Shown piece by piece: positions 19,371 to 56,024 of a DNA stretch of 64,000 nt. The stretch lies in IMG/VR virus record IMGVR_UViG_3300029319_000001; one strand, given 5' to 3'. Made by a program: the position numbers and the translations under genes. This DNA comes from a virus (Duplodnaviria; Caudoviricetes). A model generated the notes under the pieces. It was not told where the DNA came from. It searched no databases and worked only from the letters and a program-made list of their open reading frames with translations. The first letter of the stretch is position 1; every line of letters starts with the position of its first letter.

Positions 19371-19982
19371 ATGTCTTATCATGATATTTTTCCGACTAGA
19401 ATTTACAAATACAATCTAGATGTTACAGACTTGAAAGCATATATGCTTGATAGATATAATTCATACAAGGATCATTCTGTTAACGAGACTCCTAGTGGAT
19501 GGAATTGTAATGTAAGAACTGAATACGATAGTGCCTTCCCTAAACATTTGAAAGAGTATTATAATACTGTTTTACGACAATTTAAGGAGGATATTGGTTT
19601 AAAACATAGACCATTTATCGATGAGATCTGGATGAATGCCTACGAAGAATCTCATTTCCAAGAACCTCACTCTCATTTACCAGGATTTTTTTCTGCAGTG
19701 CATTATATTTGTTATGATTCTAAGGTTCATAGTCCTACAGTATTTCTAAATCCTCAGATGGATGTATATTCTTTTATGTTTGATGATAATTTTATGGATG
19801 TTCAAAAGAACCATCATTTAAAAGAGAGTGATCAATTTGATGTTGTAGAAGGAGATTTAATAATTTTTCCATCACATTTAAAACATTTTGTTAATAAAAA
19901 TAATACCAAAAATCTTCGTATGACTATATCATTCAATATAAATAAAATTGCAGAGGATACTAGAAGGGTGTTTGCTCAATAG
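19371..19982 (+). CDS. 2OG-Fe(II) oxygenase (TIGR02466-like)
   Basis: IWMNAY...QEPHSH...EGDLIIFPSHLKH...RMTISFN. Confidence 0.82.
   Translation: MSYHDIFPTRIYKYNLDVTDLKAYMLDRYNSYKDHSVNETPSGWNCNVRTEYDSAFPKHLKEYYNTVLRQFKEDIGLKHRPFIDEIWMNAYEESHFQEPHSHLPGFFSAVHYICYDSKVHSPTVFLNPQMDVYSFMFDDNFMDVQKNHHLKESDQFDVVEGDLIIFPSHLKHFVNKNNTKNLRMTISFNINKIAEDTRRVFAQ
19937..19944 (+). promoter_or_regulatory. T4-type late promoter
   Basis: exact TATAAATA, 39 nt upstream of ATG 19984. Confidence 0.65.
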
Positions 19983-19983
19983 C

Positions 19984-21195
19984 ATGAAGAATTTTGCTCA
20001 ATTTTTAACTGAAGCTCAGACTAACGCAGCAAAGCAAGCATCAAAGCTTGGTTTGACTGGGGATGGTCATGGTGCTTGGTTAGATCCTAACGGTAGAATC
20101 GTAGGTCGTACTATAGATGGTGAATTAGTTTTTAATAGTGGTCGCAAACCAGCACAAGAAACTGATCCTACTAGACCAGGTATGGCTGCTCGTGGTGTTG
20201 TTCCTGATCAAGGTCCACCTGCTGTACCACAAGCACAACCAGAAGAAGAACCAGCAGAGCAAGAACCAGTAGAAAAAACTCGTGGTACATTAACCATTGG
20301 TTTTGGAAGATTTAATCCACCTACTGCAGGTCATGAAAAACTTCTTAGCAAGATTGCAGACACAGCAGAAGAAGGAGAGTACACAATATATCCATCACAC
20401 TCAGTAGATCCGCAAAAGAATCCACTCGACACTGAGGAAAAGGTTCTTTTCATGAAAAAATTATTCCCAGATCATACCAATAATATTGTATATGATCCTT
20501 CAGTTCGTACTATATTCGATGCGTTATCACAAGCCGACACACAAGGGTACTCCAGCATTAATATCGTTGTTGGTGCTGACAGACAGAAAGAGTTTGAGGG
20601 GATCGCAAACAAATACAATGGGCAACTCTATAATTTTGACGCGATTAATGTTATTTCCGCAGGGGAAAGGGATCCCGATGCTGAAGGTGTCGAGGGCATG
20701 TCTGCTTCCAAACTACGAGCGTTAGCAGCAGATGGAGATTTTGAAGGATTTAAGAAAGGTTTACCTAAAGCTGCTAAAGGTATCGTAGCAAGAGAATTAT
20801 TTAATACTGTACAAAAATCTATGGGTACTGCTGCCAAGACTGAAGGTGTAGAAATGTGGCAGATTGCTCCTAAACTTTCAGGAAATACGCTAAGAGAAAT
20901 ATATCTTGATAGAAAATTATTTGACATAGGAAGTCTAGTAGAAAATTTAAACCATGGCTTAATTGGTAGAATAGTTCGCAGAGGTGCAAACTATGTCATA
21001 GCAGTGACTAATGAAGGAATAATGTTTAAATCTTGGATAAAAGATTTGAGTGAATATGTAACTAGAAGACCTGTCTCTGGTGTTCCTGCATCTAAGAGAG
21101 GAGTGGGTACAGACTCATATCGTGCCTATGTACAACAACTAACCCCATTAGAGAAGGTTAAGTCGTTTATAAATAACTCTAAGAAGACAGCGTAA
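19984..21195 (+). CDS. cytidylyltransferase-like (HxGH superfamily) nucleotidyltransferase
   Basis: GFGRFNPPTAGH, VVGADR, MSASKLR; N-terminus MKNFAQFLTE. Confidence 0.85.
   Translation: MKNFAQFLTEAQTNAAKQASKLGLTGDGHGAWLDPNGRIVGRTIDGELVFNSGRKPAQETDPTRPGMAARGVVPDQGPPAVPQAQPEEEPAEQEPVEKTRGTLTIGFGRFNPPTAGHEKLLSKIADTAEEGEYTIYPSHSVDPQKNPLDTEEKVLFMKKLFPDHTNNIVYDPSVRTIFDALSQADTQGYSSINIVVGADRQKEFEGIANKYNGQLYNFDAINVISAGERDPDAEGVEGMSASKLRALAADGDFEGFKKGLPKAAKGIVARELFNTVQKSMGTAAKTEGVEMWQIAPKLSGNTLREIYLDRKLFDIGSLVENLNHGLIGRIVRRGANYVIAVTNEGIMFKSWIKDLSEYVTRRPVSGVPASKRGVGTDSYRAYVQQLTPLEKVKSFINNSKKTA
21168..21175 (+). promoter_or_regulatory. T4-type late promoter
   Basis: exact TATAAATA upstream of ORF 21216. 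Confidence 0.65.
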
Positions 21196-21215
21196 ACTAC
21201 TTTGAGAAAGCTTCG

Positions 21216-21932
21216 ATGAGTAACATTGATGAAACCGCTAAGACATTAATACTGAATACTATTCAGAATGTCTTTACAGAATCCGCAATCGAGGAACCGA
21301 TTGTAGAGGAAACTCCTGCTGAAAAATTACGCAGAGAGGTTGCTGAAAAGATTGCTCATGATTTGCAAGAGAGAAAAGAAGCAACTAAGATGTATAAGTC
21401 TGGTGACGCTACAACTTCTGATGAAAAAGAATCAACAATTAAAGAAAAGAATATAAAGAATACTATTACAATCAATCCAACTATTGAAGAAGAGATTGCA
21501 CAGTTGTCAGAAAAGCAAATGGTTGTTACCAATGCAGACAAGGTTGGCAATACACCAGCATACAAGAATTTTAAGAAAGGTATAAAAGGTAAAGATGGTA
21601 AACCTTTATATGTAGCAGCAGATCATTTAAAAGATGAATATGAGCATCATCAGAAAGATAAAGATGGTAATACAATACCACATGAAGATGAGATAGCACA
21701 GGAAAACTACCGTGCAATGAGAAATCCTGAGTCACAGAAAGATCCAGATGAATCTGATAAACCATATCATAAGAGATCAAAGGCAGCAAGGATGAGAGAT
21801 CCTAAGAGAGGAATCAACTCTCCAGCATTCAAAGAATTCATGCGAAAACAAGGTTATGGGGAATCGTATAATCCTAAAGCAGCATTAACAGAGAGTACAT
21901 GGTTAATGTACGAAAAAAAAAAAATTAGCTGA
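21216..21932 (+). CDS. Lys/Glu-rich probable internal head protein, 5' part of a frameshifted gene
   Basis: highly charged modular sequence; ends just after an A12 run. Confidence 0.6.
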   Translation: MSNIDETAKTLILNTIQNVFTESAIEEPIVEETPAEKLRREVAEKIAHDLQERKEATKMYKSGDATTSDEKESTIKEKNIKNTITINPTIEEEIAQLSEKQMVVTNADKVGNTPAYKNFKKGIKGKDGKPLYVAADHLKDEYEHHQKDKDGNTIPHEDEIAQENYRAMRNPESQKDPDESDKPYHKRSKAARMRDPKRGINSPAFKEFMRKQGYGESYNPKAALTESTWLMYEKKKIS

Positions 21933-21993
21933 AGCAAAAGTAGATAAGGGTAGATCTGATTACGGTAAGGCATCTATAAGAAATTATAGAAGA

Positions 21994-22380
21994 ATGGGTC
22001 CTGGTCATGGTGATCCTGGTATGTTTGATCCCAGTGGTAAGAGAGGAAAAACTATTGAGAAGCGTAGAGAAGAACACAAAGCAAGGAGAGGTGTAAAAGG
22101 AGCAAAGGTTCCAGCATATAAGAGAGAAGAATATATTCCAGAAGAAGGATATGATCATATCAAAGATCGTATCGCAATGGCAGGTGGTGATCCTAGTTCA
22201 CCAAAGAAAAAAGATGCAACCAAGTATCCACCTCAAAGATCAAAATCAAAAGGTAAAACTGTTTATCAAAAAGAAGCAGAAAAAAAATACGGTAAGGGTG
22301 TAACTGCACTAGATATTGTAAAGAAAAACATCACCGCCAAGCACGGTAAAGGTGCAATCATGGATACAAAGAAAAAATGA
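21994..22380 (+). CDS. basic probable internal head protein, 3' part (frame open from at least 21925)
   Basis: the frame extends upstream as LAEAKVDKGRSDYGKASIRNYRR to the A12 run. Confidence 0.6.
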   Translation: MGPGHGDPGMFDPSGKRGKTIEKRREEHKARRGVKGAKVPAYKREEYIPEEGYDHIKDRIAMAGGDPSSPKKKDATKYPPQRSKSKGKTVYQKEAEKKYGKGVTALDIVKKNITAKHGKGAIMDTKKK

Positions 22381-23297
22381 AAAAATTATCCAACTGGCGA
22401 GAAGAAAAGAGAGATGAGTATGGAGATCTCATAGGTGGTCCTAAAATCTCAAAGAAACAACTCAAGAAAAATCTTTCAAGTAATGAGAAAGATGAAAAAA
22501 TTACAAGAAGTGAATCTACAAAATGTGGTAAAGGAGAATACTTCTGTAATGATAGTCAGAAGTGTAAACCAATACCAGAGGGTTATCATGTAATGCCAGA
22601 TGGTATGTTGATGAAAGGTAAGAAACATAGTGTTAATGAAGTAGCACCTCCTACTGCAAAGCATGAGAGAATGGTAAAGCACATTAAAAAATCCTATAAA
22701 AAAGATGGTAAGTTAAGTGATGATGAGAAATCAATTGCTTATGCTACTGCATGGAAAAACTATAATAAAGAAGAAGTAATTCATGAGATTGCAATGAAAA
22801 AAGATAAGAAGATTCCTCTTGGAAGAAAGAGTAATCCTTATGGAAAACGAGCAATCGCAAAAATGATTATAAAATCACTTGCTGAACCAGCAAGAGCAAA
22901 GGCAGGTGTAACAAAAGAAGACTACATTGATGAATTAAGTAAGTCTACATTGGCAAGTTACATTGAAAAAGGTGCTAGAGATATTGCAGGTAAAGCAAAT
23001 GATGCTAGTATTAAAGGTATGTCAGGAAAGAGAAAGGAAGCAGATAAAGGATACGAGAAGACAGCAAAGAGAGTTAGGGGTGTCAGTAAAGCAGGATACA
23101 AACTAGCTTTAAAAGAGATGACAAGTTATAAAGACTTCATAAAATCAGCACAAGCAGCGAGGGACAGAGTGAAAAAGAAACAAGAAGACAAGAAAAAGAA
23201 AGATGCTCAGTACTCAGATATGAAGAAGCGTGGCATCAAATTCTATGATAAAAAAGGATCAGGTAGATTGGTTGGTGGTAAGAAAAAATATGACTGA
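22377..23297 (+). CDS. Lys-rich modular probable internal head protein
   Basis: repeated (I/L/V)xE junctions; a small CxxGxYFC...CKP module. Confidence 0.55.
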   Translation: MKKLSNWREEKRDEYGDLIGGPKISKKQLKKNLSSNEKDEKITRSESTKCGKGEYFCNDSQKCKPIPEGYHVMPDGMLMKGKKHSVNEVAPPTAKHERMVKHIKKSYKKDGKLSDDEKSIAYATAWKNYNKEEVIHEIAMKKDKKIPLGRKSNPYGKRAIAKMIIKSLAEPARAKAGVTKEDYIDELSKSTLASYIEKGARDIAGKANDASIKGMSGKRKEADKGYEKTAKRVRGVSKAGYKLALKEMTSYKDFIKSAQAARDRVKKKQEDKKKKDAQYSDMKKRGIKFYDKKGSGRLVGGKKKYD

Positions 23298-23325
23298 TAT
23301 ATAGTAATAGCATATTACATTAATC

Positions 23326-23514
23326 ATGACTAAATTTTTACTACCTATTGCTATCAATATCATAGACAAAGCAGTAGACAAGATCCCAGAAGATCTAGAA
23401 GGCAAAATCAAGGAGTTTGTTATTGGACTTCTCAAGAAAGCTGCTGCTAAATCAGGCAACAAAGTAGATGATCAACTAGTAGAAGCACTAGAGAAAGCAC
23501 TATTAGGTTCTTGA
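23326..23514 (+). CDS. small helical hypothetical protein
   Basis: 62 aa ORF. Confidence 0.65.
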   Translation: MTKFLLPIAINIIDKAVDKIPEDLEGKIKEFVIGLLKKAAAKSGNKVDDQLVEALEKALLGS

Positions 23515-23517
23515 GTT

Positions 23518-23525
23518 TATAAATA
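23518..23525 (+). promoter_or_regulatory. T4-type late promoter
   Basis: exact TATAAATA, intergenic. Confidence 0.75.
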
Positions 23526-23558
23526 ATTGTAAGCAAATTGTAGTTCGGGTGTAAAAAC

Positions 23559-24062
23559 ATGGCTCTGTGGGGCAACAATGATAACATTGCTACTTTCGGT
23601 ACAGTAGCAGTTGACGGTACAACCGTCACAGGTACTGGTACTACCTTTACATCCGATGTGACTGTCGGACAGGTAATTCGAGTAGGAGCAAGAGGCGGAG
23701 TCGGTACTTATTACGGCGATGCAGTAATCACAGGTATAACCAGTGACAGAATATTGACAATTGATACAACCGCAGGGTTGAGTACAACATCAGTTGCAAC
23801 AACAAGTTACTATATCAGTGAACTTCCTAAGAGTTCAGTGCTAGATAGTGTATATCAAGAGGATCGTTCAGAATATGATTCACTTGTTTATGGTATATCA
23901 ACTGAGACATCAGGTTCCTATCATGTAGGACATCAGGGATGGGTTGGTGTACAAACATATATTGATATGCATGGTTCACTAAGAGTAAAATCAGAAACTC
24001 TAGTTGCTATGTCTGGTATTTCTACAGGTGCTAACGGTATTGCATATCCTACTGACGAATAA
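23559..24062 (+). CDS. probable virion structural protein
   Basis: MALWG start, Thr/Gly-rich beta character, late promoter. Confidence 0.6.
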   Translation: MALWGNNDNIATFGTVAVDGTTVTGTGTTFTSDVTVGQVIRVGARGGVGTYYGDAVITGITSDRILTIDTTAGLSTTSVATTSYYISELPKSSVLDSVYQEDRSEYDSLVYGISTETSGSYHVGHQGWVGVQTYIDMHGSLRVKSETLVAMSGISTGANGIAYPTDE

Positions 24063-24082
24063 ATAAATTATTTCATTTTATT

Positions 24083-24454
24083 ATGAGATTTGATGAACTG
24101 AATGATAGTAACTATCTCCTTTTCGCTATAAAAAATTATGAAAATCCTCAGGCAGTAACTGAGGATGATTTTTATGATGATTTAAAACGAATCAAATACA
24201 TTAAGAGACTACTGAAACGATACAAGAATAGTGGAGAGCTAAGAACTCATCTGATTCTTAATCATTTCATAGTCCTTTTTAATGTCTTTGGAGATGCAGG
24301 AGTGCCTTTACTATTTTTTAAGTTGGATAAGGAACTATGGTCTTGTACCAAGAGTTTCCTCTCTTATCTCGGTAGGATACCCGAATATCCCTCCACTGAA
24401 CTAAATAATATTGTTGATGATAATTATTGTCTAGAACAATTACGAGATATCTAA
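24083..24454 (+). CDS. conserved T4-like myovirus hypothetical protein
   Basis: FAIKNYENPQ...DLKRIKYIKRLL...LILNHFIVLFNVFG; AATAAATA at 24058. Confidence 0.75.
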   Translation: MRFDELNDSNYLLFAIKNYENPQAVTEDDFYDDLKRIKYIKRLLKRYKNSGELRTHLILNHFIVLFNVFGDAGVPLLFFKLDKELWSCTKSFLSYLGRIPEYPSTELNNIVDDNYCLEQLRDI

Positions 24455-24663
24455 TGGATCGTCGCCTTGCTAGGATCATTAAACTTATAAAAGAAGAGAT
24501 GGTCGGCAATGCAGTCGGGCAGAGTGGTGGATTTGGATCTAAAGCAGATGCAAAAGGACCAGTTGCTGGTTATGATAAAGGTCTCGGTAAAAAGAAAAAA
24601 GACAAAAAACCTTTGAAACGATATTTGTACGGTGGTGCAGGGTCTAGAAAACGATGGATGTAA
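24454..24663 (+). CDS. small basic Gly-rich protein
   Basis: LIKEE-MVGNAVG...PVAGYD; TAATG coupling. Confidence 0.6.
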   Translation: MDRRLARIIKLIKEEMVGNAVGQSGGFGSKADAKGPVAGYDKGLGKKKKDKKPLKRYLYGGAGSRKRWM

Positions 24664-29639: not shown

Positions 29640-30050
29640 ATGAAAATAGAATTTGAAAAACAATTCGGTAAAGGTACAGATCCTTGGTATGCAAAGGCAG
29701 AGAGGTGGGTTAAGAAGAAATTTAGAAATCCATATCTACAACACCTTGCATTAGGATTTGTTGCATGGTTGAAAGAAATTTGGATTGAGGGTAAAATTAA
29801 AATGGAAATGTCTAGTGTAGATAAACAAGTTGAAGATCTTCATGAACTCTGGGATGAAGAAGAATCCAACAAGAGAATGGATGTCATAGGACAAAATGGC
29901 AATCTAGGAATACATTATTCAAAATCAGAAGTAGATGGTTTAAATGACATGAGTATAGGAAGAGTTGGAGAATTGCAATGGGACATTGAAGAAATGAAAA
30001 AAGCAATAGTAGATGCTGCTGACGACTATGATAAGTATGTCGGTGGATAA
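29640..30050 (+). CDS. hypothetical protein
   Basis: 136 aa ORF. Confidence 0.6.
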   Translation: MKIEFEKQFGKGTDPWYAKAERWVKKKFRNPYLQHLALGFVAWLKEIWIEGKIKMEMSSVDKQVEDLHELWDEEESNKRMDVIGQNGNLGIHYSKSEVDGLNDMSIGRVGELQWDIEEMKKAIVDAADDYDKYVGG

Positions 30051-30053
30051 ATA
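30046..30053 (+). promoter_or_regulatory. late promoter-like motif
   Basis: GATAAATA upstream of ORF 30078. Confidence 0.5.
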
Positions 30054-30077
30054 CCAATTAGGAAACTGTCACAAGGT

Positions 30078-30557
30078 ATGAAGACATTTGCAGAATTTAT
30101 GCTAGAATGTTCTCTAGTTAAGGAGAGTAGTCTAAGCCGAATAAAAAGTAAATCTGATAAGGGAGGCATGGCTGTCCTCTCAGCGACTCGTACTGGTAAA
30201 TCTTCCAAGGAAAATAGAGCAAGAAATAAACAATTAGATAAAGATATTCGTGGTCGTGGTCTTCCTGGTCCTACGAAAACGAAAGGTAAATGGGAAGGAG
30301 GAAGTGAACGCAGTCATGTTGTTTCTTCTGGGAAGAAAGGTAAGAGAAAGTTTAAGAAAGAAATTAAAAAGTTAGGTAAAAAGTATAATCAGGATGCAGT
30401 TATTGTTCAGACTAAAAAGAATGCTACACTAAGTGCAACCAGAAAGGGTGGATTGGGTAATAAGAAGAGAGTAGGTATAGGCAAATTTAAACCCCAAGGT
30501 AAATCACCAGAGGGTGTAACACAAATCAAAGGAAAAACATTTACTTATGAAAAATAA
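30078..30557 (+). CDS. basic protein with T4 internal-protein-like N-terminus
   Basis: MKTFAEFMLE; very Lys/Arg-rich. Confidence 0.7.
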   Translation: MKTFAEFMLECSLVKESSLSRIKSKSDKGGMAVLSATRTGKSSKENRARNKQLDKDIRGRGLPGPTKTKGKWEGGSERSHVVSSGKKGKRKFKKEIKKLGKKYNQDAVIVQTKKNATLSATRKGGLGNKKRVGIGKFKPQGKSPEGVTQIKGKTFTYEK

Positions 30558-30783
30558 ATCTTACGACGACTCTAATTGGAGAGAGGAGTACAAAAGTTAC
30601 ACAACCAATAAGAGATACCTAGAACTACTAGAGAATGGTCCTAAACAACTATCTCAGGCATGGGTATTGCAAGCATTACATAACGAGTGGAAGAAGATTA
30701 AGGGTTATTCAGACGATTATTCGGATGAAAATACAGGGCAACTTCAATCGTCATTTAAAGATTGGAATGCTAGAGTCGAATAA
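30547..30783 (+). CDS. hypothetical protein
   Basis: 78 aa ORF. Confidence 0.65.
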   Translation: MKNKSYDDSNWREEYKSYTTNKRYLELLENGPKQLSQAWVLQALHNEWKKIKGYSDDYSDENTGQLQSSFKDWNARVE

Positions 30784-30811
30784 ATATCCTTATAAGGATT
30801 AAAATTGTGTT

Positions 30812-33410
<2,599 letters not shown>

Positions 33411-52081: not shown

Positions 52082-53170
52082 ATGACAACTCTTTCAAATA
52101 CACGCAGACAAGGTGGACTCCTACAGGGATGGCCTGAGTTCTGTGAGTGGGTAACTTCAACAAACAATAGAATCTATGTTGGTTGGTTCGGAGTACTCAT
52201 GATCCCATGCTTGCTAACAGCAGCAGCATGTTTCATCGTTGCATTCATTGCAGCACCTCCAGTCGATATCGACGGAATCAGAGAACCAGTTGCAGGTTCT
52301 TTCATGTATGGTAACAACATCATCTCTGGTGCAGTTGTTCCTTCATCAAATGCAATAGGTCTACACTTCTACCCAATCTGGGAAGCAGCAACAGTAGACG
52401 AATGGTTATACAATGGTGGTCCTTACCAACTTGTTATTTTCCACTTCCTTATTGGAATCTCTGCCTACATGGGTAGACAGTGGGAACTATCATATAGATT
52501 AGGTATGAGACCTTGGATATGTGTAGCATATTCTGCTCCTGTATCTGCAGCATTTGCTGTATTCTTAGTGTATCCTTTCGGTCAGGGATCTTTCTCAGAC
52601 GGAATGCCACTAGGTATCTCAGGTACATTTAACTTTATGTTCGTGTTCCAAGCAGAGCATAACATCCTAATGCATCCTTTCCATATGGCAGGGGTAGCAG
52701 GTATGTTCGGAGGATCTTTATTCTCAGCAATGCATGGTTCTCTTGTTACATCATCTCTAATCAGAGAAACAACTGAGCAAGAGTCACAGAACTACGGTTA
52801 TAAGTTCGGACAAGAAGAAGAAACATACAACATTGTAGCTGCACACGGTTACTTTGGTCGTCTTATCTTCCAGTATGCTTCATTCAACAACTCAAGAAGT
52901 TTACACTTCTTCCTAGCAGTTTTCCCTGTAGTCTGTGTATGGTTAACCTCAATGGGTATCTGTACTATGGCATTCAACCTTAACGGATTCAACTTCAACC
53001 AATCAGTTGTAGATGCTAACGGTAAGATTGTTCCTACATGGGGCGATGTTCTTAATAGAGCAAACCTAGGTATGGAAGTTATGCATGAGAGAAATGCACA
53101 TAACTTCCCACTTGACCTTGCATCTGCAGAGTCAACAACAGTTGCTTTAACAGCACCTTCAATCGGTTAA
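52082..53170 (+). CDS. psbA: photosystem II D1
   Basis: unambiguous D1 sequence, uninterrupted, Gln130 form (GRQWELS). Confidence 0.99.
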
Positions 53171-53192
53171 TAGATTAACTGATATTCAATCG

Positions 53193-53214
53193 AGGCACCT
53201 TCGGGTGCCTTTTT
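53193..53214 (+). terminator. rho-independent terminator
   Basis: AGGCACC-TTCG-GGTGCCT-TTTT. Confidence 0.9.
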
Positions 53215-53228
53215 CATAGGAAAAATTA

Positions 53229-54305
53229 ATGGTAGCATCTACTTTACAAGCACCTACAAGGGGTTGGTTTGATGTACTTGATGATTGGTTAAAGAGAGAC
53301 CGTTTTGTATTCATCGGATGGTCTGGTCTTTTACTTCTGCCTTGTGCTTACCTGTCAATCGGAGGATGGTTCGTTGGAACTACTTTCGTGACATCATGGT
53401 ATACACATGGTATTGCATCTTCATATCTTGAAGGAGCAAACTTTTTAACTGCAGCAGTATCCACACCTGGTGATGCGATGGGTCATAGTCTTATGTTCCT
53501 CTGGGGACCTGAGGCACAAGGTTCATTTGTTCGTTGGGTTCAACTCGGTGGACTCTGGAACTTCGTAGCATTACATGGAGTCTTTGGACTCATAGGTTTC
53601 ATGCTCCGTCAGTTTGAGATCGCAGGACTTGTAGGTATCAGACCTTACAATGCTCTAGCATTCTCTGCTGTTATTGCAGTATTCACAAGTATATTTTTGA
53701 TCTATCCTTTAGGTCAGCATAGTTGGTTCTTCGCACCATCATTCGGTGTCGCAGCAATCTTTCGTTATATTCTATTCATACAAGGTTTCCATAATATAAC
53801 TCTCAATCCATTTCATATGATGGGAGTGGCAGGAATACTAGGTGGAGCATTACTCTGTGCCATTCATGGTGCAACAGTACAGAACACATTGTATGAAGAC
53901 ACATCACAATACACAGAGGGTAAGATTCAATCTACAACCTTCCGTGCATTCGATCCTACACAGGAAGAAGAAACTTATAGTATGATTACAGCAAACAGAT
54001 TCTGGTCACAGATATTTGGTATCGCATTTTCAAACAAAAGATTCTTACACTTCCTTATGTTGTTCGTACCTGTGATGGGTATGTGGACATCATCCATAGG
54101 TATCGTAGGTCTTGCACTTAACCTCAGAGCATACGATTTTGTATCTCAAGAGATAAGAGCAGCAGAAGACCCAGAGTTCGAGACTTTCTATACAAAGAAC
54201 ATTCTTTTAAATGAGGGTATGAGAGCATGGATGTCATCTGTTGACCAACCACATGAGAACTTTGTGTTCCCAGAAGAAGTATTACCTCGTGGTAATGCCT
54301 TGTAA
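53229..54305 (+). CDS. psbD: photosystem II D2
   Basis: unambiguous D2 sequence with the Prochlorococcus-type insertion ([12 protein letters not shown]). Confidence 0.99.
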
Positions 54306-54595: not shown

Positions 54596-54887
54596 TCAAC
54601 ACATGTATCCATTTTATAGAGTGTATGATGAAAATGGTGATCAGTATTGTGATTGTAGTCACGAAGAGTATGCAATCAAAACTTTATGGTTACATAGAGA
54701 ATATCAAAATGAGATATTTACTTACCAAAAAATCAATGCACCTATCTTAGATCAAACAGTTGATGTAACAGCAACAAGAGAAAAAGAATTACCTGGTCAA
54801 CAAGGTCTTCCTAAAGCAAAAGAAAGACTTCCTTTTGAACCAGAAGATAAACAATTACAACACAGTATTTTGGAGGAAATTATTTAA
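54588..54887 (+). CDS. hypothetical protein
   Basis: 99 aa ORF. Confidence 0.6.
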   Translation: MISQHMYPFYRVYDENGDQYCDCSHEEYAIKTLWLHREYQNEIFTYQKINAPILDQTVDVTATREKELPGQQGLPKAKERLPFEPEDKQLQHSILEEII

Positions 54888-54976
54888 TGCCACTATTTTT
54901 AATCGTATTAGGTGCCTCATCAGTTGGTGCTCTCATCGCTCTTTATATTCTTAGAAAGTATGACCCCCACAATTAA
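54887..54976 (+). CDS. 29-aa membrane peptide
   Basis: GGAGG RBS, TAATG coupling; MPLFLIVLGASSVGALIALYILRKYDPHN. Confidence 0.55.
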   Translation: MPLFLIVLGASSVGALIALYILRKYDPHN

Positions 54977-55166
54977 TTTTAAACAAACAAGTGACGAACT
55001 ATATGATCGTCATCATTACAAAATAGTTTCTAAACACTATGCTACTTTTATTGTAAAATCTTGGGACGAAGTTCAAGAGTGGTGGTGGAATCATTGTAAT
55101 ATGTTTGGTTTTGATGCTATAATAGAAGTATTAGACATACCAAAAGAAAAACCTAAAGGATTTTAG
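54960..55166 (+). CDS. hypothetical protein
   Basis: YDRHHYKIV...VQEWWW. Confidence 0.55.
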   Translation: MTPTINFKQTSDELYDRHHYKIVSKHYATFIVKSWDEVQEWWWNHCNMFGFDAIIEVLDIPKEKPKGF

Positions 55167-55168
55167 TA

Positions 55169-55321
55169 ATGAATTGTTGGCACTGTGGAACTGAATTAAT
55201 CTGGGGATCAGATTTTGACATGGATGATATAAATGACGGAGAGGAGTCTGAGTATGATTTCTGGTCTAGTTTTACTTGTCCTAAATGTGAATCTTATGTG
55301 GAGGTATTTCATCACAAATGA
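55169..55321 (+). CDS. 50-aa zinc-ribbon protein (not in ORF track)
   Basis: MNCWHC...CPKC. Confidence 0.7.
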   Translation: MNCWHCGTELIWGSDFDMDDINDGEESEYDFWSSFTCPKCESYVEVFHHK

Positions 55322-55818
55322 ACATCTTTGTAACTGATCCTTCAGCAGTAAAATCTGCACAGGTATTGCCCGACAAACACATTGTCAAGATGCCATTAGA
55401 AACATGTCAAATGTTATCTATTGTTGCATCAGAAAAATGGGGTCATGGTTTTGGCACACTACCAAAGTTAGATGGCACACCATACAAGACAGACAAGGGT
55501 GCATTTCGTAATCATCCTTGTACTATCTGGGCACAAGATAATTGGACATGGTTAATTGTACATGGTCTTGCTCTATGCTATGAATATACGCATAGGTATG
55601 CTAAAATACATAGTTGTCAGCATACAATAGAACATGCTGTAAAAATATTTCCACCACAAGATCATGATCCTAAATCTTTTGCGTTCGCAGGACCCGACAG
55701 GTTTAAATTTGACACAAGCATTGACACTTTTACTGCTTACAAGCGTTATATATCGAGCAAACCTTGGGTTGCATCTAATTATCTTCGTGACCCATCCAGA
55801 AAACCGCATTGGTTATGA
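55318..55818 (+). CDS. pyrimidine dimer DNA glycosylase-like protein
   Basis: MNIF...DKHIVKMPLETCQML...HPCTIW...AYKRY. Confidence 0.7.
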   Translation: MNIFVTDPSAVKSAQVLPDKHIVKMPLETCQMLSIVASEKWGHGFGTLPKLDGTPYKTDKGAFRNHPCTIWAQDNWTWLIVHGLALCYEYTHRYAKIHSCQHTIEHAVKIFPPQDHDPKSFAFAGPDRFKFDTSIDTFTAYKRYISSKPWVASNYLRDPSRKPHWL

Positions 55819-56024
55819 ATAAAGTATGGAAGATCTGGAAGTATGCTCTAGGATCATTTAACGATGAAACAACTAAGAAGTATGATGATATTATATGCAT
55901 CATTAGATCTTTTATCTTTGTACAATTAGTAATTACTAACTGCTTTATTGTTGCAGGTAACATTAGACATTGGAACGACCATCATACCCCACCAACTTAT
56001 GAAATTAACTCAAGAAATAATTGA
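55815..56024 (+). CDS. small membrane protein
   Basis: WKYALGSF...NCFIVAGNIRHW. Confidence 0.6.
   Translation: MNKVWKIWKYALGSFNDETTKKYDDIICIIRSFIFVQLVITNCFIVAGNIRHWNDHHTPPTYEINSRNN

Follow-up and report, generated by a model that had tools for sequence, protein, structure and literature searches.

The capsid-targeting sequence (CTS) of bacteriophage T4, MKTYQEFIAE (PMC8442874), alone suffices for encapsidation, and is removed by the gp21 protease at L/I-x-E (PMC8442874, PMC9026906). In T4-like cyanophages, homologues of one nucleotidyltransferase have been found by mass spectrometry (MS) in purified virions of S-SM1 (PMC3037559), S-SCSM1 (ORF91; PMC9602691), S-SZBM1 (PMC9146016), and S-CREM2 (gp154; PMC10665884); virions of S-CBWM1 contained the enzyme too, according to PMC9602691. 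The authors of these proteomes remarked on its 'frequent detection' and proposed carriage in the virion, yet raised contamination as well. A gene of the same family resides in a 64,000-nucleotide (nt) stretch of viral DNA (IMG/VR record IMGVR_UViG_3300029319_000001; Duplodnaviria, Caudoviricetes), hereafter called the window. It encodes a HIGH-superfamily nucleotidyltransferase of 403 amino acids (aa), which opens with the decapeptide MKNFAQFLTE. We consider it fairly probable that this enzyme is expressed late and carried inside the phage head by means of a T4-type leader.

The gene is T4-GC190, named 'cytitidyltransferase', which belongs to the core set of T4-like cyanophages and is so listed by Sullivan et al. 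2010 (supplement). Its product matches PHROG 395 ('cytidyltransferase', E 9e-96), and lies narrowly above the threshold of Pfam PF01467 (CTP_transf_like; 22.5 bits versus a cut-off of 21), a model which spans the entire superfamily. By tblastn the gene is present in 564 phage records, chiefly Synechococcus and Prochlorococcus myoviruses. The closest cultured relatives (S-T4, S-SM2, P-TIM68, S-SCSM1) are about 50% identical, the virion protein ORF91 of S-SCSM1 being 47% identical over the full length. The family counts 7816 matches among clusters at 90% identity, and 4241 representatives at 50% clustering. DNA of the gene was seen in marine metagenomes of 12 studies, and marine metatranscriptome contigs from two runs of two studies cover window positions 20103-20600 with zero mismatches, though such contigs cannot show the transcript start or exclude carry-over of DNA. 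In AFDB clusters and BFVD all matches were members of this phage family or bore unspecific 'cytidyltransferase-like' names, and no papers using the term 'cytitidyltransferase' were found in the literature search. The window (GC content 36%), which belongs to a T4-like cyanophage, also encodes gp43, UvsX, gp41, MazG, gp61, NrdA/B, tail-fibre proteins, and the photosystem II proteins D1 and D2. The genes of the latter, psbA and psbD, adjoin each other at 52082-54305 on the plus strand, and the pair assigns the window to a cyanophage.

Translation from ATG 19984 yields a protein with the N-terminus MKNFAQFLTE-AQTNAAK. All the motifs that an earlier note, made from the sequence alone, had listed for this open reading frame (ORF) are found in it: the leader followed by alanine, GRFNPPTAGH (aa 108-117, the TAGH codons ending at nt 20334), GADR (aa 197-200, within VVGADR, aa 195-200), and SASKLR (aa 240-245, nt 20701-20718). 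The longest ORF opens upstream, at TTG 19948. This codon was dismissed as a start and ATG 19984 taken as the real one, because all homologues begin at MK and the TTG lies only 4 nt past a late-promoter-like motif; were transcription to start just 3' of this motif, TATAAATA, the TTG would fall at or upstream of the 5' end of the transcript.

The leader is identical to the T4 CTS in 4 of 10 positions, and F/Y and L/I are conservative pairs. It occupies the extreme N-terminus of the enzyme, as a CTS does, and the same register is kept in a second window gene, ORF 30078 (MKTFAEFMLE, 6/10 identical to the T4 CTS), and in the homologue of the latter in P-TIM68 (MKTYKEFIQD, 7/10). Residues M1, K2, F4, F7 and E10 are invariant across 12 close homologues (67-95% identity). 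Conservation of MKxFxxFxxE in homologue N-termini had been set beforehand by the earlier note as one point on which its reading should stand or fall, and on this point the reading stands. Among the best 150 family representatives at 50% clustering, the pattern [KR]x[FYLIMW]xx[FYLIMWV]xxE occurs within the first 20 residues in 64. The residue two before the leader glutamate (P3) is L or I in 57 of these 64 leaders, which fits the L/I-x-E rule of T4 gp21 (PMC9026906), and P1' is most often A. A looser pattern, admitting long or one-residue-shorter leaders, is found in half of the representatives (75/150) versus about 1% of background ORFs. At the sequence level, the leader of the window enzyme itself terminates as a prohead-protease site, with (L/I)-x-E followed by a small residue.

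Leaders of this type are rare outside the family. The pattern M[KR]x[FYWLIM]xx[FLIMVY][LIVMF]xE, read from every possible start in all six frames of the window (ORFs of at least 50 aa), marks two real genes only, 19984 and 30078, plus one antisense ORF of 51 aa. The back-translated DNA pattern M-[KR]-x-[FY]-x-x-[FY]-[LIVMF]-x-E was moreover searched on both strands of five complete cyanophage genomes (S-CREM2, S-SCSM1, S-SM1, Syn9, P-TIM68; about 950 kb). Seven matches were found, and none in the reversed control. Five matches coincide with the start codons of the orthologues of the window gene, in 5/5 genomes; the remaining two mark S-CREM2 gp6 and S-SCSM1 ORF30. The leader is found at residue 1 in three layouts: before an N-terminal module in the window enzyme, directly before the catalytic domain in S-CREM2 gp154 and Melnitz-1, and before a fusion which begins with a kinase (MKFKEFLLQE). 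Since it stands at residue 1 whatever domain comes next, it behaves as a portable N-terminal signal. That the leader is a piece of the catalytic domain was dismissed, as it remains N-terminal when other domains come between.

Several unrelated cargo proteins of one phage have the leader in common: the window has two such genes, S-CREM2 four or five, and S-SCSM1 two. The six-frame scan of S-CREM2 found it only on gp6, gp13, gp14 and gp154, and all four belong to the set detected by MS in virions, versus 52 of 221 annotated features overall (PMC10665884). A fifth MS-detected protein, the Cas9-annotated gp12, has ..LRFASFMAE near its annotated start; this start lies about 15 codons upstream of the motif and may be wrong. 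In the virion kinase gp14 of the same region (OR473000.1, 7704-12846) the leader is accompanied by two copies of a 45-aa N-terminal module, and ..ALME|G precedes the second copy. Over the first 172 aa of S-CREM2 gp6, its N-terminal third, identity to ORF 30078 is 52%; gp6 is found in virions, starts with MKDFDSFLEE and carries the annotation S-adenosylmethionine (SAM) hydrolase. ORF 30078 resembles a basic internal protein of the T4 type. In P-TIM68 the homologue of ORF 30078 is AIR93461 (KM359505.1, 118752-119267; MIMPQTMKTYKEFIQD...). Its annotated start, immediately preceded by GATAAATATAAATG, is probably six codons too far upstream, and an internal methionine gives the leader reported above. 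The idea that a late enzyme bears a T4-type capsid-targeting leader, put forward in the earlier note, is supported both by the conservation among homologues and by the occurrence of the leader on unrelated virion proteins.

S-SCSM1 encodes gp21, gp22 and gp23, and its gp23 contains FLAE|APT. In this major capsid protein (54627-56024) the sequence ..GSFLAE|APTNAV is located about 58 residues from the N-terminus, and is a likely maturation site, with the F-L-x-E|A context of the leader. A match to gp21 was not found in a 40.7-kb fragment, the nearest record to the window.

As for virions, packaging of the enzyme, as had been proposed, agrees with detection by MS of its homologues in at least five cyanophages. 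The abundance of the enzyme in S-SZBM1 virions is low (exponentially modified protein abundance index, emPAI, 0.26; 2 peptides; PMC9146016). Presence in the virion was not tied to a leader in the proteome papers: 'targeting', 'N-terminal' and 'cleav' were searched for in PMC10665884 and gave no mention, and the literature pairing 'capsid targeting sequence' with 'cyanophage' contains no paper addressing this protein. Packaging is already known for relatives, while neither the mechanism of targeting and cleavage nor the predictive rule based on the leader seems to have been described in the literature searched.

An exact late-promoter octamer had been reported 39 nt upstream of the start, and it is found there (Table 1). 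The octamer is not enriched by itself in the window (6 copies versus 8.75 expected), and the strand and position of its core, ATAAATA, were analysed in place of octamer enrichment. The core is depleted, 15 copies being observed versus 31.8 expected, and all shuffles gave at least 15. All 15 copies in the window are in sense orientation, none in antisense, and 9 of them stand 17-49 nt upstream of start codons, tail-fibre genes among them. Genes with ATAAATA upstream include 19984, 21216, 23559 (structural), 30078, 30812, 58020 (tail-related) and 62939. Being confined to the sense strand, depleted, and placed before starts, the core shows the pattern of a signal in use and otherwise avoided, which is what a functional T4-type late promoter (NATAAATA) would look like. 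Late transcription, a feature of CTS-type proteins, is indicated here at the level of the motif.

Genes downstream of the enzyme gene have homologues in known particles. ORF 21216 matches S-SCSM1 ORF89 and ORF92, ORF 23559 matches S-SCSM1 ORF95, and ORF 24427 matches S-CREM2 gp160 and S-SCSM1 ORF97, all annotated as virion proteins; ORF 30812 likewise has a virion-protein homologue. The enzyme gene is hence part of a small late cluster of virion-protein genes inside the replication module. ORFs 21216, 21994, 22377, 24427 and 30812 are rich in Lys and Glu, and these ORFs and ORF 23559 (21168-24663 and 30780-32404, plus strand) are found behind NATAAATA motifs.

Table 1. Features of the enzyme gene, its product, and other late genes in the window (pLDDT, predicted local distance difference test; pI, isoelectric point).
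Feature	Position	Strand	Remarks
T4-type late-promoter-like motif, TATAAATA	19937..19944	+	39 nt between motif and ATG 19984
Coding sequence, 403 aa + stop, HIGH-superfamily nucleotidyltransferase	19984..21195	+	homology, PHROG 395, Pfam PF01467
Leader MKNFAQFLTE (aa 1-10), T4 CTS-like	19984..20013	+	ends L8-T9-E10|A11, gp21-type (L/I)-x-E
N-terminal module (aa 11-55), a helix plus a sheet of three strands; basic, pI 9.7	20014..20148	+	pLDDT 89-95; PHROG 3561 match
Pro/Glu-rich disordered linker (aa 56-99), pI 4.1	20149..20280	+	pLDDT 45-66; poorly conserved in alignment
Rossmann-type HIGH nucleotidyltransferase domain (aa 100-288)	20281..20847	+	pLDDT >90; PPTAGH nt 20317-20334, SASKLR nt 20701-20718
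SH3-like five-stranded beta-barrel, KOW/Tudor-like (aa 300-357)	20881..21054	+	conserved with enzyme domain; N336 invariant, W351 nearly
C-terminal tail (aa 358-403)	21055..21192	+	follows KDLSE357|Y, which may be a second (L/I)xE site; pLDDT low at aa 362-364
Downstream late-gene cluster, ORFs 21216, 21994, 22377, 23559, 24427	21168..24663	+	virion-protein homologues; TATAAATA at 21168 and 23518
Second leader gene, GATAAATA (30046-30053), then ORF 30078-30557	30046..30557	+	159 aa, pI 10.6, MKTFAEFMLE

The AlphaFold model of the protein (mean pLDDT 84.6) is modular, and the leader is modelled as a helix at aa 4-11. The module which follows it recurs in two virion proteins of S-CREM2, once in gp12 (alignment E 1e-12) and in two copies in the gp14 kinase (E 6e-11 and 3e-9). 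In the catalytic domain P112, P113, H117, P147, K153 and R245 are invariant. The barrel, when folded alone, superimposes on the KOW domains of Spt5/NusG at the level of the fold only (Z 6.0-6.7, root-mean-square deviation, rmsd, 1.3 A over 47-50 residues); since it is conserved along with the catalytic domain, it probably has a part in the function of the enzyme. Processing after E357, in analogy to T4 Alt (PMC9026906), is speculation. Feature searches of the ESM Atlas with the N- and C-terminal parts returned only unnamed viral clusters, with scores (0.81-0.87) in the range of common chance first hits. Many family members are fusions of 500-1100 aa with glucosaminidase, PAP2 phosphatase, zeta-toxin-like kinase, Pol-beta nucleotidyltransferase or DUF5824. 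In the representatives P0151, P0163, P0184, P0225 and P0243 (890-1002 aa), the enzyme is fused to DUF5824, to PAP2, to glucosaminidase, or to zeta-toxin-like kinase plus Pol-beta nucleotidyltransferase, and most of them keep a leader-like N-terminus.

The catalytic domain has a HIGH-type Rossmann fold, with a (H/T)xGH motif (TAGH, aa 114-117) and a SxTxxR-like motif (SASKLR). The motifs GRFNPPTAGH and SASKLR resemble GRFQPxHxGH and ISSTxxR, the corresponding motifs of nicotinamide mononucleotide (NMN) adenylyltransferases (NMNATs); this likeness is a lead only. In structural alignments with representatives of the superfamily, six NMN/nicotinate mononucleotide (NaMN) adenylyltransferases rank first (Z 13.2-12.3, rmsd 2.9-3.5 A, 150-170 residues). 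Phosphopantetheine adenylyltransferase (PPAT) follows within one unit (Z 12.1), and GCT-type cytidylyltransferases reach Z 10.6-11.8 over 111-118 residues only. The Foldseek matches (PPAT, NadD, NMNAT and NadM) are 12-20% identical to the domain and have E-values between 1e-5 and 1e-7, the best of them belonging to PPAT. Scores with the NMNAT family models are far below the cut-offs (TIGR00482, 16.1 versus 112 bits; PRK01153, 14.4 versus 127; TIGR01526, 13.9 versus 341; TIGR01527, 12.4 versus 181), and in sequence searches of the PDB no match was obtained by phmmer, nor any under E 0.05 with the family profile. The likeness to NMN/NaMN adenylyltransferases suggested in the earlier note holds at the level of the fold, and does not hold as a specific assignment, PPAT being tied and the NMNAT models remote. 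The protein is probably an adenylyltransferase of the NMNAT/PPAT type according to the model. The database names 'cytidyltransferase' and 'NMNAT' are not secured by the evidence, and the former is without specific support.

Set beside NadD, NadM, NadR, archaeal NMNAT and CoaD, the phage family shares the Rossmann HIGH fold and the (T/H)xGH and SxSxxR motifs, and aligns with Z 12-13 over 150-170 residues, at 12-20% identity and with no significant match by sequence or hidden Markov model. Unlike these enzymes, it features invariant residues of its own (R109, K153, R200, R229, D230, D232), an obligatory SH3-like barrel, and N-terminal packaging elements. It is possible, though somewhat doubtful, that the enzyme is a true NMN/NaMN adenylyltransferase, which would remake nicotinamide adenine dinucleotide (NAD+) early in infection, for example against NAD+-depleting defences or for an NAD+-dependent ligase; such a function would not conflict with packaging. 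Support comes from the six best structural matches, which include NadM of Synechocystis and Francisella and the NMNAT of M. jannaschii, and from some databases, in which homologues are named NMNAT. The structural tie with PPAT and its lead in Foldseek, the scores of 12-16 bits with NMNAT equivalog models whose cut-offs are 112-341, the lack of a significant PDB match by phmmer or profile, and the identity to NMNATs of only 13-17% all weigh the other way. Neither Nampt nor another NMN-supplying gene was seen beside the enzyme gene, and the invariant SH3-like barrel, which is without a counterpart in NMNATs, hints at a larger acceptor.

Packaging itself would proceed as follows. Transcription would be driven late by the NATAAATA promoter, and translation would start at ATG 19984. 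MKNFAQFLTE would act like the T4 CTS, binding the scaffolding core of the assembling prohead, so that the protein becomes enclosed. A protease of the gp21 type would then cut after E10 (L-T-E|A), and a protein of about 43 kDa would be left in the mature head, made of the basic module common to other packaged proteins, the HIGH nucleotidyltransferase domain and the SH3/KOW-like barrel. In analogy to the T4 internal proteins and Alt, the protein would most likely exit with the DNA and act at the first moments of infection.

It is rather improbable that the enzyme, packaged through its leader, works within the prohead or head, either as a part of the core or of assembly or on the packaged DNA and its ends, and is not delivered to the host. 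CTS-type propeptides are also found on T4 core proteins which never act in the host (PMC9026906), the barrel and the basic module could bind nucleic acid, and the charged proteins encoded nearby look head-internal. A nucleotidyltransferase however requires nucleoside triphosphates and Mg2+, both in short supply within a closed head, the glucosaminidase, PAP2 and kinase domains to which family members are fused are meaningful only outside the capsid, and T4 proteins of similar size, such as Alt, are ejected (PMC9026906, PMC5512222).

Several observations weigh against packaging by means of the leader. Identity to the T4 CTS is limited to 4 positions of 10, and presence in virions rests on homologues which are 37-50% identical to the window enzyme. 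According to the authors of the proteomes, a late protein made in abundance might accompany the particles through CsCl, and the enzyme is unreported in the shallower proteomes of S-PM2 (2008), S-SCSM2R (23 proteins) and S-CREM1 (14 proteins). S-SCSM1 ORF30 has the leader, yet bears no virion-protein flag. Cleavage is unproven, as a new N-terminus at A11 appears in no published peptide map. In P-HM2 the enzyme has no leader (MKKVYVTFGRLNPPT; MKKVYVTFGR...) and is encoded separately from the barrel, so that packaging is not obligatory for the function of the enzyme. The P-HM2 orthologue (NC_015284.1, 146351-148246) is split into PHM2_163, made by the catalytic domain only, and PHM2_164, made by barrel and tail.

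It is also improbable that the protein is a plain auxiliary metabolic enzyme of the cytoplasm, produced late, with an N-terminal helix serving the protein itself, for example in folding, oligomerisation or regulation, and that its detection in virions reflects carry-over: the contamination caveat voiced in the proteome papers themselves, the leaderless enzyme of P-HM2, the low abundance in S-SZBM1 and the proteomes which omit the enzyme favour this, but it is opposed by a decapeptide common to unrelated proteins (the basic 159-aa protein, the kinase, gp13, the Cas9-annotated protein), by the restriction of the leader in S-CREM2 to MS-detected virion proteins, by its place at the extreme N-terminus before any domain and its gp21-fitting end, and by the position of the gene among virion-protein genes behind a late-promoter motif.

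Carriage of the enzyme in the head by a T4-type leader, which we prefer, has consequences beyond this locus. T4-like cyanophages are among the most abundant viruses of the ocean, and the gene belongs to their core set. The recurrence of the enzyme in virion proteomes has so far passed for a curiosity or been put down to possible contamination, and the leader offers a concrete mechanism that can be tested. With a sequence rule of one line, candidates for packaging, and probably for injection, can be listed from marine phages, whether cultured or not; kinases, nuclease-like proteins, the protein annotated as SAM hydrolase and large fusions of several enzymes would all fall under it. The reach of the T4 CTS/gp21 system would be extended far beyond the T-even coliphages, and the leader might serve to load cargo into cyanophage heads. 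A far broader proposal, which we regard as unlikely, is that M-K-x-F-x-x-(F/Y)-(L/I)-x-E is a general encapsidation address, used by marine T4-like phages (Kyanoviridae and their relatives) and others too. It would define unrecognised injected effectors, from small basic proteins to polyvalent fusions of 1000 aa; the present enzyme would be near-universal in cyanomyoviruses, and its barrel would mean nucleotidylylation of a host macromolecule (for instance a component of transcription or translation, or the end of a nucleic acid) rather than NAD+ synthesis.

Compared to the cyanophage T4-GC190 orthologues (S-SM1, S-SCSM1 ORF91, S-SZBM1_140, S-CREM2 gp154), the window gene is found in the same slot between gp41/MazG and gp61/NrdA, with the same neighbours; the window phage differs from the cultured ones in being uncultured and at most about 50% identical. 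The multi-effector fusion architecture of many family members is shared with the polyvalent proteins of phages and conjugative elements, for which packaging and delivery are predicted (Iyer et al. 2017, PMC5512222). Unlike these, the window protein has one enzymatic domain, and would be packaged by a T4-type leader, not by MuF or portal-associated modules; HIGH-type nucleotidyltransferases are not among the domains found on searching PMC5512222. In contrast to the T4 internal proteins, small and highly basic, the cargo is a 44-kDa enzyme of three domains and near-neutral pI (6.65 for the mature protein of 42.8 kDa), with an extra 45-aa module after the leader, and in size and pI it is closer to the packaged enzyme Alt; ORF 30078 is itself small and highly basic. 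Targeting, cleavage and ejection in cyanophages are at present inferred. With the CTS-bearing internal proteins of T4 the window enzyme shares a leader of the form M-K-x-aromatic-x-x-F-(L/I/M)-x-E, its gp21-type (L/I)-x-E end, late expression at the level of the motif, the head-assembly lineage of T4 (gp21, gp22, gp23), the presence of the leader on several unrelated cargos, and a small basic member, ORF 30078.

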